From: a virus
Direction: 5' to 3' (one strand)
DNA length: 36,609 nt
Virus record (IMG/VR): IMGVR_UViG_3300000117_000005
Location: 1 to 36,609 of that record
Position 1 is the first letter of the stretch. Each line of letters starts with the position of its first letter. This document shows positions 1 to 36,609 of this stretch, piece by piece. Made by a program: the position numbers and the translations under genes. The notes under the pieces are model-generated. The model was not told the origin of the DNA and made no database searches. It saw only the letters and a program-made list of their open reading frames with translations.

Positions 1-67
1 AAAGCGTTAAGTGCATGTACCAAAAAGAAATATCTCGTTTAGCTACAAAAGAAAAGTCATGGAAACG
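1..67. repeat. Terminal direct repeat, copy 1 (identical to 36543..36609); marks circular closure or terminal redundancy
   Basis: Base-by-base comparison: the 67 nt aaagcgttaagtgcatgtacc...gtcatggaaacg occur at both contig ends. Confidence 0.95.
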
Positions 68-27870: not shown

Positions 27871-28009
27871 TATTATAATTATGTCAATCAATACGTACCG
27901 TAAACCCCTTGAGTGCAACAATTTTTAAAGGGGTAGTTTATGATAAAAGTACCGACCGCCCTCAGCGTTTTTAACCCCCACCCCCCCTTGGTTTACACTT
28001 TATTTACAT

Positions 28010-28215
28010 TTTGATTAGTCAAAGTACTGACTTTGATTAGTCAAACTTTAGACTTTGATTGATCAAACTGAACACTTTGATTAGTCAAAGAAAACACTTT
28101 GATTGATCAAACAATGGATTTTGATTAGTCAAAATTAGTACTTTGATTAGTCAAAATGTAAAATTTGATTGCTCAAAATAACCTGGCTGATCACAATGAC
28201 ATTTTTTTTGATCAA
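28010..28215. repeat. Array of 8 phased 14-bp dyad boxes TTTGATTRRTCAAA (22-bp period) plus 2 degenerate TGATCA cores
   Basis: Boxes start at 28010, 28032, 28054, 28076, 28098, 28120, 28142 and 28164. Degenerate cores are at 28188-28193 and 28208-28215. Confidence 0.95.
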
Positions 28216-28223
28216 TGGTGATG

Positions 28224-28255
28224 CAATCCAATGCCTAAAACCAATCCAGTGCCTA
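28224..28255. repeat. 14-bp direct repeat CAATCCARTGCCTA x2
   Basis: Copies at 28224-28237 and 28242-28255 with one mismatch. Confidence 0.85.
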
Positions 28256-28256
28256 T

Positions 28257-28396
28257 CTCTAAGCCCTTTTAATGGTTACTTTTTAGATCCCTTTCATTGG
28301 CTCTAAGGCTCTAAGCTCTTAGGCTTTAAAGCTCTAATCGCTAGCCCTAAGCCCTTTGATAAGCTCTAAGAGCTTCCCTTTGATCTCTTAGGCTCT
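28257..28396. repeat. Cluster of CTCTAAG / CTCTTAG heptamers in both orientations
   Basis: CTCTAAG at 28257, 28301, 28309 and 28364. CTCTTAG at 28316 and 28385. Variants at 28331 and 28345. The 13-nt palindrome AGCTCTAAGAGCT is at 28362-28374. Confidence 0.85.
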
Positions 28397-28459
28397 CTTC
28401 AATCGCATTATACCATTAAGCTTTAAACGCGTCAAACGATTCTAAAGGTATTTGGACAC

Positions 28460-28489
28460 AAAAAAGCCCCAACCTGTTAAGGCAAGGGC
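28460..28489 (-). terminator. Rho-independent terminator downstream of the 295-aa ORF
   Basis: Minus-sense GCCCTTGCC-TTAACA-GGTTGGGGC (two G-U pairs and one mismatch), followed by TTTTTT (plus A-run 28460-28465). Confidence 0.65.
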
Positions 28490-28514
28490 TTTAAAGGGCT
28501 TTAAAAGGCTCTAA

Positions 28515-29402
28515 TTATAGTTCATTGTTAAGCCTTTCTATTTCAGCGAACTTTACGATATGGCAACCAGCTCGAACCGTACCAATAGTTGAAACTGCAT
28601 CAAGTTGGTAGTTGCCAAGCTCGAATCGCTCACCGTTCCGTTGCCAAGATTTGCCGCTTTTCATTACTGATTTCACAAATCGGATTGCTAGCCTTGCTTG
28701 CTCTGTAGGAAAATGAGCTCCCTTAGAGGTTTCAACGGTCTTCCCGTCATCAATCAATCTAAGCAAGGTTTCGGGATATGACACAATCCAAACCTTTTTC
28801 CCGTTTCGCCAAGCGATCACATTTTCTTCCATTTCGGCTTTTAACTTAGCTAGCTTTTCAGCTTTCCGCTTTGCTTCCCGAATTCGGATTGCTTTGATTT
28901 TCTCTTTTATGTCTTCCGCTTCGAAATCGAAATCAAAATCAAAGTCCTTTAAGAGATGCTTGCAATCAAAGGTTTCGCTGTAGTCGAACGCTTGCGCGCG
29001 AGTATCCTTTGCCCCTTTTAAATAAAAATCGAAGTAAGATCGAGCCTTCGAAGCCTTTTTAATGTAGAAAGCAAATTTTCTAGCGTAATGCCTTAAGTTC
29101 GTTCGATCACATCTTTCGTATCTTTCGCTACCTGTTGAGGGAACTTCGAAAGTTTTGATAGAATCAGGGATTGATCCCCTTACGATTGAAGCGTGTTTAC
29201 TCGTTGAAACCGAGTAGCGCTCTGAGTTAATCAAAACGACTTTATTTTCCTGAAACTTAGCAATAGTATAGTGTTCACCATAGCTATATATAGAAGAGCC
29301 ATAAAAGAACATATTGCTTGCCCTTCCATGGTCTTGATTTTGCTGCGCCCAAACATGGGCGACTTCATTGTGATTTCTTAATACAGTTCTCATATTCAAC
29401 AT
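28515..29402 (-). CDS. Orphan 295-aa protein of unknown function, bracketed by repeat arrays
   Basis: ATG start. N-terminal domain (VAHVWAQQ...FFYGSSIYSYGEHYTIA...SVSTSKH), an acidic FDFDFDFE tract followed by a K/E-rich helix, and a C-terminal domain (...VETSKGAHFP...VRAGCHIV). It has its own terminator. Confidence 0.7.
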   Translation of the reverse strand: MLNMRTVLRNHNEVAHVWAQQNQDHGRASNMFFYGSSIYSYGEHYTIAKFQENKVVLINSERYSVSTSKHASIVRGSIPDSIKTFEVPSTGSERYERCDRTNLRHYARKFAFYIKKASKARSYFDFYLKGAKDTRAQAFDYSETFDCKHLLKDFDFDFDFEAEDIKEKIKAIRIREAKRKAEKLAKLKAEMEENVIAWRNGKKVWIVSYPETLLRLIDDGKTVETSKGAHFPTEQARLAIRFVKSVMKSGKSWQRNGERFELGNYQLDAVSTIGTVRAGCHIVKFAEIERLNNEL

Positions 29403-29417
29403 TTTTTCAGTGTTTGC

Positions 29418-29491
29418 AAAAAAGGGAAGTGCCCCTTTTTTATAGTAAAGTAATTTGAAGCGGATTTTTTAGAAAAGGGAAGCCTTTTTTT
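29418..29491. promoter_or_regulatory. Two A-run/GC/T-run hairpins sharing AAAAGGGAAG, just upstream of the 295-aa ORF
   Basis: AAAAAAGGGaagtgCCCCTTTTTT (29418-29441) and AAAAGGgaagCCTTTTTTT (29473-29491). Both look terminator-like on either strand, but the GC stems are short. Confidence 0.5.
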
Positions 29492-29554
29492 CAGTTATTT
29501 TGAAAGGTCTTTGAAGTGAATCTTTAAGGTTTCAAATGTCACTATTTTTTCACC

Positions 29555-29724
29555 AGGGATTGTAAAAAAAATGTAAACGTAAAATATCTGTAAATGTAAA
29601 TTTATTGTAAATGTAAAATGTTTGTAAAAGTAAAAAAAGTGTAAATGTAAATAATTCGTAAACGTAAATAAAATGTAAATGTAAAATATTTGTTAATGTA
29701 AATAAACTGTAAATTGAGATTAGG
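29555..29724. repeat. Array of about 10 units of TGTAAAYGTAAA plus a 5-nt variable spacer (exact 17-bp period)
   Basis: Units start at 29555 (half unit), 29572, 29589, 29606, 29623, 29640, 29657, 29674, 29691 and 29708 (half unit). Confidence 0.95.
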
Positions 29725-29764
29725 TCTCATTATCATGTTTATTGAGAATGGGTCTTATTATCAT
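29714..29764. repeat. 23-bp direct repeat TTGAGAWTRGGTCTYATTATCAT x2
   Basis: Copies at 29714-29736 and 29742-29764, 20/23 identical, start to start 28 bp. Confidence 0.85.
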
Positions 29765-29786
29765 CAACCTGGTAGATGATTGATTT

Positions 29787-29833
29787 CATATACATACATA
29801 CATACATACATACATACATCTACATACATCTAC
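29787..29833. repeat. Tetranucleotide microsatellite (TACA)n ending in a duplicated TACATACATC
   Basis: The tract reads cata(tacata...)tc tacatacatc tac. Seven uninterrupted TACA units lie at 29791-29818. Confidence 0.95.
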
Positions 29834-29982
29834 TGTACGACAACGGATCTACTGGGATGCTCTTCCCTCTTATACATTGTACATTTTCGGCAAAGTTCAT
29901 TGTACTGAAAAATAATTCTTTACCTTTTCAGCTTCTTTCGTCAACTTTTGGAGCATGGATAAACAAGTAATCTTAACCATCA

Positions 29983-30125
29983 AGCGCAACAATGGCGCTA
30001 GCTGGGCGCGGCGTAGCCGTTGACCCCAACTGATTTGGCAACCGCGCTCACGACGAGTGGTGATGCTCTCAGCTTTGATTAAGTTCATGCCTTCGGGTTG
30101 CTGTGGTCGTATGCCTGCTAAAGCT
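29983..30125. other. G+C-rich, helix-rich island in the AT-rich hub (candidate small RNA or structured DNA; alternatively a 63-aa minus-strand ORF 29897..30088)
   Basis: Helices: AGCGC/GCGCT (29983-87/29995-99); GGGCGCGG/CCGCGCTC (30004-11/30042-49) enclosing GTTG-accc-CAAC; a CC-TTCG-GG loop (30090-97); AGCTTT/AAAGCT (30071-76/30120-25). Confidence 0.3.
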
Positions 30126-30139
30126 CGTCATATTTTACA

Positions 30140-30171
30140 TTGTCACAAATTGACCCTTCAATATGTGACAA
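30140..30171. promoter_or_regulatory. Perfect 8-bp inverted repeat TTGTCACA-N16-TGTGACAA at the head of the early operon (operator-like)
   Basis: Arms at 30140-30147 and 30164-30171. It encloses TTGACC (30150-55) and lies 20 nt upstream of the first early ATG (30191). Confidence 0.55.
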
Positions 30172-30190
30172 AAATAACAGAACAATACAC

Positions 30191-33339: not shown

Positions 33340-34080
33340 ATGAGAGATACACGATACTGGAAAAAAGACAATACAAACGGGGGTTACTGGAGTAAATGCC
33401 GTGACCAAATAAGCAATGAGCAAGCCAATGACGGTAGAGTACTACACAAGTACACTAAGCCTTCACCTGGCGAGAGATGGCAGTACACTACAGATAAACT
33501 GTTCGGTAATATCGAGTCCGTTTACATCGACAACGGAATGTACGGTGAGGTTCTAAACATAGGACTTCAGCACGATCAAGGAGTAGATGTACTTAGCGTA
33601 CCTGTATGGAAAGACAAATCCAACGGGAAGCTATCTGTAGATTTCAAGGGTATTGCTAAGAAAATTCCCAATATCTCTGTTCATTCTCCCCTGAGTGCAG
33701 GTACTTGGATAAACCCTAAGGGAGCTTACACGTTCAAAGATCCACAGGGTAATGAGCGTACAATCGTACCGATCTACATTACGATGCAGCAAGGTGGAGC
33801 TAACGTTGCTTCAGCCTTCCCATATGAGGACGGCAAGTACGTTGGAGTTCCTGAAGCAGATTCTGCTAAGATCGGGGGCAGGACGTACTTCGACTTCTCT
33901 AAGCAGAACGACTTCTTCGTGGACACAGTTAATCGTTTCATCCAAGATAATCAATCTGTCTTTGAGGAACGTAAAGCTAATCGCTCCATGACTCCTGCTG
34001 AACAGGAAAGTCAAGAGCCTAAGAACATTCCTGTCACAGCTAATGCTGCTGACGATAGCGACGATGATCTACCGTGGTAA
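33340..34080 (+). CDS. Single-stranded DNA-binding protein-like protein (acidic C-terminal tip)
   Basis: The C-terminus ...AADDSDDDLPW mimics the SSB DDDIPF interaction tail. It lies directly after the helicase. Confidence 0.55.
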   Translation: MRDTRYWKKDNTNGGYWSKCRDQISNEQANDGRVLHKYTKPSPGERWQYTTDKLFGNIESVYIDNGMYGEVLNIGLQHDQGVDVLSVPVWKDKSNGKLSVDFKGIAKKIPNISVHSPLSAGTWINPKGAYTFKDPQGNERTIVPIYITMQQGGANVASAFPYEDGKYVGVPEADSAKIGGRTYFDFSKQNDFFVDTVNRFIQDNQSVFEERKANRSMTPAEQESQEPKNIPVTANAADDSDDDLPW

Positions 34081-36397: not shown

Positions 36398-36609
36398 ATG
36401 AGCAAAGACGAAATCTTAATAATCACACAAACTATCGCATTGCTGAATTCGATGGTGATATGCGGGGAAGACCATTCAAATCAGTCCAAGGAAGCGGTTC
36501 TTTCCGCGTACAAACTTCTGGATGACACAGAAGAAAAATTCCAAAGCGTTAAGTGCATGTACCAAAAAGAAATATCTCGTTTAGCTACAAAAGAAAAGTC
36601 ATGGAAACG
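36398..36609 (+). CDS. 5' part of the junction-spanning ~115-aa hypothetical gene (continues at 68..203)
   Basis: Hand translation: ATG 36398 MSKDEILIITQTIALLNSMVICGEDHSNQSKEAVLSAYKLLDDTEEKFQSVKCMYQKEISRLATKEKSWK..., open to the contig end. Confidence 0.6.
   Translation, partial: MSKDEILIITQTIALLNSMVICGEDHSNQSKEAVLSAYKLLDDTEEKFQSVKCMYQKEISRLATKEKSWK
36543..36609. repeat. Terminal direct repeat, copy 2
   Basis: Identical to 1..67. Confidence 0.95.

Follow-up and report, generated by a model that had tools for sequence, protein, structure and literature searches.

The virus record IMGVR_UViG_3300000117_000005, analyzed here as one window of 36,609 bp, carries an array of nine tandem 17-bp units, YGTAAA-N5-TGTAAA (29561–29713, plus strand), between its late and early operons. 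We read this array as a cis-acting docking site on duplex DNA that is placed under a trans-acting factor and serves regulation, and give this reading as a whole a probability of about 0.5. Its parts are not equally firm. Sequence-specific binding of the array by a protein is likely, judging from the patterns of conservation described below; an accessory regulatory role, rather than one in replication origin function, packaging or mobility, stands at roughly even odds; and the idea that the binder is a winged-helix dimer, which draws on analogy with characterized regulators, falls somewhat short of that.

Tandem Repeats Finder reported the array at 29561–29714 (period 17, 9.1 copies, score 140), and direct reading of the bases resolved 29561–29713 into nine complete, contiguous units of hexamer, 5-bp spacer and hexamer, with zero leftover bases. 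Within each unit the half-sites are direct repeats 11 bp apart. The 153 bp contain 18 hexamers, of which 17 have a GTAAA core and one is TGTTAA (i.e., 17 GTAAA pentamers and one GTTAA); eight of the nine units thus contain GTAAA-N6-GTAAA and the ninth is TGTAAA-N5-TGTTAA. The spacers are A/T-rich and all different, namely AAAAA (unit starting at 29561), ATATC (29578), TTTAT (29595), ATGTT (29612), AAAAG (29629), TAATT (29646), TAAAA (29663), ATATT (29680), and TAAAC (29697). Both hexamers of a unit are TGTAAA, except that the first is CGTAAA in the units at 29578 and 29663 and AGTAAA in that at 29629, and the second is CGTAAA at 29646 and TGTTAA at 29680.

All the unit starts named in the original prediction (29572, 29589, and so on to 29691) were present on reading of the bases, as was the difference among spacers. 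The half units that it placed at the array ends do not exist; position 29555 begins AGGGAT, which is not a hexamer, the true hexamer lies at 29561–29566, and the half unit there is an artefact of the other register. The register starting at 29561 is better than the one six bases later because stand-alone copies always take the form of an 11-bp pair. This is the case for the window box at 27992–28008, for the collapsed alleles CGTAAAAAAAATGTAAA in the related loci L029 and L046–L048, and for the box at 2261–2277 of locus L007 (TTTACATTTTTTTTACA), which lies between palindromes. Most arrays of other phages start or finish with a full pair, often TGTAAA-AAAAA-TGTAAA. The array also has a higher-order structure. 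Period 34 received a Tandem Repeats Finder score of 196, above the 140 of period 17, and odd-numbered units have A-rich spacers while even-numbered ones have AT-alternating spacers; together these suggest that the array grew by duplication of a two-unit block. Its top strand is nearly free of C, so hairpin formation is impossible. With respect to helical phase, it had been claimed that the 17-bp period alternates faces of the helix. This applies to successive units, which rotate by ~223 degrees, but not to the half-sites in one unit, which at 11 bp apart share the same face.

Outside the array, the window contains a single GTAAA-N6-GTAAA pair, compared with 0.16 expected from shuffled sequences. 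This solitary unit is inverted (TTTACACTTTATTTACA, reverse complement TGTAAATAAAGTGTAAA; 27992–28008, minus strand) and abuts a second array with a 22-bp period. It is identical to the last array unit (29697–29713) at 16 of 17 positions on the opposite strand, and is kept at 16–17 of 17 positions in the relatives L029, L046, L049, and L052, with varying flanks. The inverted TTTACA hexamers previously noticed at 27992 and 28003 beside the 22-bp array are confirmed and, being 11 bp apart, make up one complete inverted unit. A third TTTACA proposed as a box, at 30134, does exist as a single hexamer, but carries no weight because there are 115 GTAAA pentamers beyond the array (expectation for the entire window, 93 ± 9), leaving it statistically unsupported. 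A degenerate version of the box pattern was likewise at chance level outside the array (3 seen, 2.6 expected). There are therefore one unit pointing left (27992–28008) and nine pointing right (29561–29713), with 1.55 kb between them, and these inverted boxes bracket the 22-bp array, a promoter-like and a terminator-like site, and an orphan gene.

We searched IMG/VR and metagenomes for the array with a three-unit pattern. Ten IMG/VR contigs contained the tiled array, as did about 25 of the 74 metagenome matches. The remaining metagenome matches were unrelated perfect repeats or (GTAAAN)n satellites, the latter from termite-gut and similar samples and accounting for most of the 74; these satellites look different, with perfect-copy units or a 6-bp period. 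A scan of 185,579 representative bacterial and archaeal genomes, which used a 2.5-unit array pattern rather than single promoter boxes, detected no phage-type array, whether in a prophage or in a host, and matched only three unrelated perfect tandem repeats. Carriers of the tiled box fall into three phage groups with almost no genes in common. Group i (the window, L041, L016, L049, L052, and others) has one architecture and one orphan gene. Group ii (L003, L005, L006, L007, L010, and L098) shares with the window a helicase, a protein resembling single-stranded DNA-binding proteins (SSB-like protein), and a phosphoesterase; its orphan gene belongs to the GP88 family (Pfam PF17338) and lies between two inverted GTAAA arrays, and a lineage-specific 15-bp array is also present. 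Group iii (L002, L009, L011, L104, and L117) encodes a primase-helicase and a GP88 orphan, and its one GTAAA array is flanked by two further arrays of 17-bp period; it has zero detectable proteins in common with the window, and its GP88 orphan is 54% identical to that of group ii. From representative arrays of the three groups and two unassigned loci, we extracted 87 units, of which 41 were distinct. A pyrimidine (T or C) occupies position 1 in 40 of the 41 and position 12 in every one; the first base of the spacer is never G, and the remainder of the spacer is A-rich and variable.

The box is also independent of orientation. The orphan-coding strand reads TTTACA through the window array, and the GP88-coding strand of L007 reads TGTAAA. 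A palindromic element adjoining the array has the same orientation in both phages (TTGAGAnnnGGTCTCAyTATCAT in the window, GAGATTGAGTCTCAATATCA in L007), while the array itself is flipped. In the groups with two sites (i and ii, including L007 and L098), the sites are inverted and bracket the orphan gene, with the boxes directed outward in group i and inward in group ii. Flanking of an orphan gene by phased arrays, as first remarked on in the window, is thus a recurring arrangement in other phages. The reversal between groups makes a strand-specific RNA role, e.g., as a 5' leader, sponge RNA, or start-stop mini-ORFs (open reading frames), unlikely; the natural reading of these sequences is that the array works on duplex DNA. 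This bears out the proposal that it is a DNA-level site array rather than a coding or RNA repeat, given that the cores are kept in three unrelated groups with free spacers and reversed orientation, and that the array region has no credible ORF and no Rfam match.

Comparison of close relatives showed both strict conservation and presence/absence polymorphism. The exact 153-bp array occurs at 153/153 identity in nine loci with at least four flank haplotypes; their right flanks differ from the window by 11–33% and their left flanks by more, and their orphan proteins are 75–90% identical. From these comparisons, the invariant array indicates selection or a recent sweep. The claim that only the cores are constant therefore stands inside the array and between phage groups, but fails among close relatives, which keep the entire array with its spacers. 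Four independent assemblies (L029, L046, L047, and L048) have a single unit at the array position and retain the same flanks, 22-bp array, orphan gene, and left solitary box; this unit joins the downstream sequence just as it would if the eight internal units had been lost or had never been there. Unit number is 1 or 9 in group i and 5.5–12 in the other groups.

Other relatives lack the entire surrounding region, an accessory control cassette (27947–30167) that lies between the late operon on the minus strand and the early operon on the plus strand and is replaced by unrelated sequence. Homology to L028, L030, and L033 ends at ~27942–27946 and returns at 30168 or later, and in L028 the replacement consists of ordinary early-strand genes with zero arrays. 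These cassette-less relatives (L025, L028, L030, L033, and L034) encode helicases 96–97% and SSB-like proteins 95–96% identical to those of the window; relatives without 27947–30167 have large terminases (TerL) 98% and TerS-like proteins 85–96% identical, and no box in up to 20 kb. Since near-identical relatives lack it whole, the cassette is, on this comparison, accessory, and the array is not an essential origin or packaging site of this phage lineage. The array is hence dispensable, and the proposal that its units are iterons in the replication sense is not supported, considering that phages with near-identical helicase and SSB-like protein have neither array nor cassette and others have one unit. 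By the same comparison, phages are viable with only one box, and the allele with nine is either under strong constraint or of recent spread.

The genomic context limits the candidates for a binder. The same 67 bp stand at both ends of the window (1–67 and 36543–36609); the assembly is therefore closed, either as a circle or with terminal redundancy, at ~36,542 bp, and the gene inventory is complete. The minus strand carries the late genes (27921 down to 2376), including those for the large terminase, major head protein, and tail fibre, and the plus strand carries the early genes from 30191 onward, including those for a PIF1/Dda-type helicase, the SSB-like protein, a metallophosphoesterase, and endonuclease VII. 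Among the scanned proteins of this closed genome there was no polymerase, Rep/initiator, Par, integrase, transposase, or invertase protein, no recognizable helix-turn-helix regulator, no ParA, ParM, TubZ, or ribbon-helix-helix adaptor, and no Trans_reg_C domain. Shine-Dalgarno sequences are nearly absent from the genome, and the metallophosphoesterase is 55–62% identical to proteins of Cellulophaga, Flavobacterium, Tenacibaculum, and Nonlabens phages and at most 37% to others; on account of these two features the host is probably a member of the Flavobacteriia, though they only hint at this group and do not assign the host to it. The array is missing from the cultured flavobacterial phages P12024L and 11b, and the closest deposited phage, C75C1 (TerL 75% identical), has neither boxes nor a host record, and the literature yielded nothing of use on it. 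No deposited phage resembles the genome in its DNA sequence; a nucleotide search of the region against GenBank phages and plasmids gave no match, though the low-complexity filter may hide arrays.

Winged-helix regulators of the OmpR/PhoB family bind as head-to-tail dimers; among them, CpxR belongs to Proteobacteria and WalR to Firmicutes. To our knowledge, Flavobacteriia have neither CpxR nor WalR and would be expected to have other OmpR-family regulators. The phage unit matches the published consensus for this family, i.e., direct-repeat half-sites 10–11 bp apart from centre to centre. The CpxR box is GTAAA-N5-6-GTAAA, as in the validated mexA site of P. aeruginosa, GTAAACCTAATGTAAA (PMC9600279, PMC5063474), with CpxR sites reported as active in either orientation (PMC5063474), and the WalR/VicR box is TGTWAH-N5-TGTWAH (PMC4168254). 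Eight of the nine array units have the CpxR form and five of the nine match the WalR consensus exactly; the former consensus is proteobacterial and the latter comes from Firmicutes, whereas the likely host belongs to neither. We take this match as a lead on the class of the putative reader, not its identity. No phage gene was found to co-occur with the box across the three groups, the bracketed gene itself being DUF8033-type in group i and the unrelated GP88 in groups ii and iii, and cassette-less relatives retain every other gene. The binder is thus probably a host protein, by elimination, or a conserved phage protein whose sites are optional. It is because no phage gene tracks the box, and because cassette-less relatives keep their other genes, that we favor the host, although host encoding taken by itself is a rather doubtful proposition. 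Three phage proteins were considered and rejected as binders: the 246-aa SSB-like protein of groups i and ii, since most relatives encoding it have no array; GP88, which is widespread without GTAAA boxes (among 80 viral contigs, L129–L208, any box was found in 6/80 and an array in 3/80); and the orphan protein, whose confident structural model has no known DNA-binding fold. A literature search on TGTAAA repeats in phages and Bacteroidota, flavobacterial phage iterons, and PF17338 found nothing relevant.

Under the reading that we favor, each 17-bp unit would dock one head-to-tail OmpR/PhoB-type winged-helix dimer on one helical face. Because 17 bp is equivalent to 1.62 turns, successive dimers would be rotated as the units are and a filled array would form a spiral; such a helical stack of dimers is plausible and comes near the DNA wrapping or filament first suggested. 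One box would be the basic functional element and nine boxes an amplified, high-avidity allele, which would recruit or titrate the trans-acting factor and thereby set expression of the bracketed orphan gene. The same factor would perhaps also control the adjoining palindromic operators and the early promoter region. The inverted solitary box, 1.55 kb away, might serve in looping or might simply mark the other edge of the regulated unit, with array and inverted box together bracketing an early-type orphan gene in a dispensable, horizontally exchanged control cassette. Several observations weigh against this model. Hexamers of adjacent units are only 6 bp apart, and full occupancy by OmpR-type dimers may be sterically hindered. 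The perfect conservation of spacers in close relatives exceeds what core-only recognition predicts. The CpxR/WalR match may reflect only a shared fold or coincidence, as the likely host group has neither regulator, and a binder for the array is itself putative. Lastly, the box was absent as a 2.5-unit array from the representative genomes, in a scan that did not cover single boxes in host promoters. A more specific version is unlikely: that the phage uses the array as a decoy or sensor for a two-component response regulator of its host, in a cassette moving between unrelated marine, probably flavobacterial, phages. In that case, the nine-box allele would titrate or recruit the regulator, blunting the host envelope/stress response or coupling the orphan early gene to host state, and the boxes would double as recombination handles for orphan genes.

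We weighed five other explanations against the regulatory docking array. If the repeats were a replication origin or copy-control iterons, an initiator, possibly the orphan protein, would bind the repeats on both sides of the gene and the nearby (ATAC)n tract would be the unwinding element. Direct repeats do flank the gene in inverted orientation, the array lies at the switch point of gene orientation and cumulative GC skew, the (ATAC)10 tract is 77 bp downstream, and the phage has a helicase and SSB-like protein without a polymerase or recognized initiator; additionally, 45/80 GP88-family loci in other phages have a tandem array within 2.5 kb. We nevertheless regard an origin as improbable. 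The near-identical replication proteins of relatives with one unit, or with neither array nor cassette, argue against it, as does the presence of the same box beside two unrelated orphan proteins; the orphan model has no winged-helix Rep-like fold or PDB match, a 17-bp period leaves sites off one face compared to the typical 22-bp iterons, and the skew switch is not separable from the change of transcribed strand. About as improbable is that the boxes are mobility or recombination handles, either as inverted ends of a non-autonomous mobile or invertible cassette or as boundary motifs for the shuffling of orphan genes by homologous recombination. The inverted 17-bp units bracketing the cassette (16/17 identical) have the appearance of terminal sites, asymmetric in being one versus nine like Tn7-type ends; moreover, different groups carry different cargo genes within the same bracket, close relatives vary in presence of the cassette, and some sequences hint at a recent exchange of DNA by phages of groups i and ii. 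In contrast, the closed genome has no transposase, integrase, or invertase, the replacement edges (~27946 and 30168 or later) miss the boxes (27992 and 29713) and vary between relatives, no target duplication is visible, a single orientation with no inverted variant is seen in more than 10 related loci, and the direction of the boxes is not fixed between groups i and ii.

The three remaining explanations are far less probable. A packaging signal, with the repeats as TerS binding sites (pac or cosB-like) beside the terminase operon, would account for the solitary box lying 70 bp upstream of the 206-aa gene that heads this operon and for arrays of all three groups lying within ~1.7 kb of a TerS-like gene or terminase operon, and nine units recall nonameric TerS rings; yet there is very little chance of this, given that relatives with the nearly identical TerL and TerS-like 206-aa proteins have zero boxes or one unit and that unit number differs between arrays and groups. 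It is equally hard to credit that the minus-strand TTTACA is a -35-like cluster of overlapping weak promoters, or an RNA-polymerase sink, directed toward the orphan gene. TTTACA is one mismatch from TTGACA, 17 bp is the optimal spacer, and the minus strand of the array contains four promoter-like matches (9/12), but the -10 falls on the variable spacer, and no TAnnnT arises from the spacers of groups ii and iii (such as AAAGT and AAAAA); the array of group ii points the opposite way with respect to the gene downstream, and promoter-like matches in the region are near the shuffle rate (10 vs. 7.0 ± 2.5). A functionless, slippage-prone minisatellite or an RNA-level repeat would fit the variable unit number and the period-34 sign of block duplication. 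It is highly improbable in view of the cores kept across unrelated phages with differing spacers, the 153/153 identity despite diverged flanks, the solitary boxes kept at fixed positions, and the difference from true (GTAAAN)n satellites, and the flipped orientation, lack of an Rfam match, and want of pairing potential in the nearly C-free strand speak against an RNA.

The cassette holds further elements around the array. The bracketed orphan gene (28515–29402, minus strand) encodes a 295-aa protein of PHROG 7247 with a DUF8033-type fold, and the array is 159–311 bp upstream of its start codon. Its AlphaFold2 model is confident (pLDDT, a local model confidence score, of 93.6), with no fold match in the PDB and no recognizable DNA-binding fold; the sequence has no Pfam or NCBIfam match and matched only uncharacterized and DUF8033 viral proteins. 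Homologues of this orphan are located within the terminal repeats of phiCbK-like Caulobacter phages, and others are close to record ends in RHEph01, Brevundimonas phage Delta, PA-SR01, and S-ESS1. The 22-bp-period array (28010–28179), with palindromic TTTGATTAGTCAAA cores, is lineage-specific and always accompanies the boxes in group i. Between it and the orphan gene, on the minus strand, are the promoter-like site TTGACG-17-TATAAT with TG (28435–28407) and the terminator-like hairpin (28483–28466), which together span 28407–28483 and are consensus matches only; no Bacteroidota-type promoter motif TAnnTTTG is usefully positioned in the control region. The same interval contains more short repeats, of the GGCTCTAAG type and three copies of AAGGGCTTTA (28299–28380 and 28484–28514), and in L084 similar AGCTCTA-type repeats follow a GTAAA array. 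On the other side, the palindromic element directly abuts the array in two plus-strand copies (29714–29736 and 29742–29764). It also follows the array in group ii, with three copies in L007 (2208–2300), and is probably the operator of a different dimeric protein. Tandem Repeats Finder also detected the (ATAC)10 microsatellite (29790–29829), which keeps its position and varies in length in L016, L029, and L041. The SSB-like protein (33340–34080, 246 aa), encoded after the helicase gene, has no family match and ends in an acidic C-terminus, DDSDDDLPW, as in the tips of bacterial and T7-type SSB proteins.

Some observations on the other carriers are of separate interest. The tandem arrays near GP88 (PF17338) genes are often situated shortly past the stop codon and have lineage-specific units with periods of 9, 13, 14, 15, 17, or 18 bp; this suggests that GP88 works with its own co-evolving repeats, and the 22-bp array of the window may be the counterpart for the DUF8033-type orphan. 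Phages of groups i and ii seem to have exchanged DNA recently, to judge from two matches to L043, a group ii contig. Window positions 30025–30178, which are upstream of the first early gene and include a TTGTCACA...TGTGACAA inverted repeat, match two pieces of L043 (12305–12418 and 12772–12810) at 96–97% in otherwise unrelated DNA, and the 106-aa gene at 457–777 matches its counterpart at L043:11746–12066 (E = 2.6e-73). A 116-bp stretch held in common with L043 folds no better than shuffled sequence. In group ii, the region that separates the terminase operon from the palindromes and array contains 69 nt that match tmRNA at its 3' end (Rfam RF00023, 45–48 bits; L007:2744–2812, L005:2299–2367, and L003:665–733). 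This fragment is reminiscent of an attP core; there is no integrase in the 17.5 kb examined, and ARAGORN called no tRNA or tmRNA gene. An 11.7-kb metagenome contig of 50% GC has, at L103:2000–7500, more than 15 different tandem arrays with periods of 14–90 bp and little coding capacity, including the GTAAA-type AGTAAAGAAAGCGTAAA. Of six contigs that end near arrays, five break inside the adjoining perfect array; we considered and rejected the notion that such ends are physical genome termini, as breaks inside perfect arrays point to assembly breaks.

Arrays of protein sites in phage control regions are already a known kind of feature, and we compared this one with several systems. The boxes of OmpR/PhoB-family regulators (CpxR, WalR/VicR, and tandem pho boxes) are like the array units in having direct-repeat half-sites 10–11 bp apart and an A/T-rich spacer, but in cells they occur singly or in twos to fours with 11-/22-bp phasing in promoters, compared to nine gapless units of 17 bp in the phage. 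Bacillus phage phi29 reportedly carries boxes for the host regulator Spo0A, such that host state governs early transcription and replication; it provides a precedent for a lytic phage with host response-regulator sites in its control regions. The phi29 boxes are dispersed single 7-mers fixed in the phage, and their regulator is identified, whereas here the array is tiled, the cassette dispensable, and the binder putative. Ribbon-helix-helix proteins bind the omega heptads of pSM19035, ParR-parC of R1 and pSK41, and the ParB hexamer repeats of pB171. These partition arrays share contiguous short direct repeats, spiraling dimers, use of either orientation, and clusters flanking an operon; they differ in that the phage genome has no gene for a partition ATPase or adaptor and in that its unit is a 17-bp half-site pair rather than a single 6–11-bp repeat. 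Iterons lie on both sides of the rep gene in P1 (incC-repA-incA) and F (incB-repE-incC). These iterons and the lambda origin resemble the phage arrangement in their repeat clusters on both sides of a gene, opposite orientation, and similar length (17–22 bp); against this likeness, the phage has no recognizable initiator, its array is dispensable, with a period of 17 bp and not 22 bp, and the neighboring genes are unrelated. T4-type phages are said to have mobile regulatory cassettes, called PeSL, with promoter and stem-loop motifs. There, too, orphan ORFs in a hyperplastic region are flanked by a short, conserved motif with a regulatory role, which could help to shuffle them between phages, though PeSL are single copies of a promoter plus stem-loop and the phage box is a direct repeat, up to 12-fold, without a stem-loop. 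We found no description in the literature of this box with gapless 17-bp tiling, of its inverted bracket around orphan genes, of its presence in uncultured marine phages from three groups that are otherwise unrelated, or of a set of alleles with nine units, with one unit, or without the cassette.

These findings bear on how marine phages may interact with their hosts and with each other. If the boxes bind a host regulator, they would be a natural case of a virus using amplified transcription-factor sites to read or drain host signaling, for which phi29 and Spo0A have been the main precedent so far, with single sites. If they instead serve as recombination handles, they would reveal how orphan genes pass from one phage to another that is unrelated to it. 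Genomes that are otherwise nearly identical but have nine units, a single unit, or no cassette at all are a ready-made experiment through which these ideas are directly testable, and the invariant 153-bp array is an easy marker for following the cassette in marine viromes.

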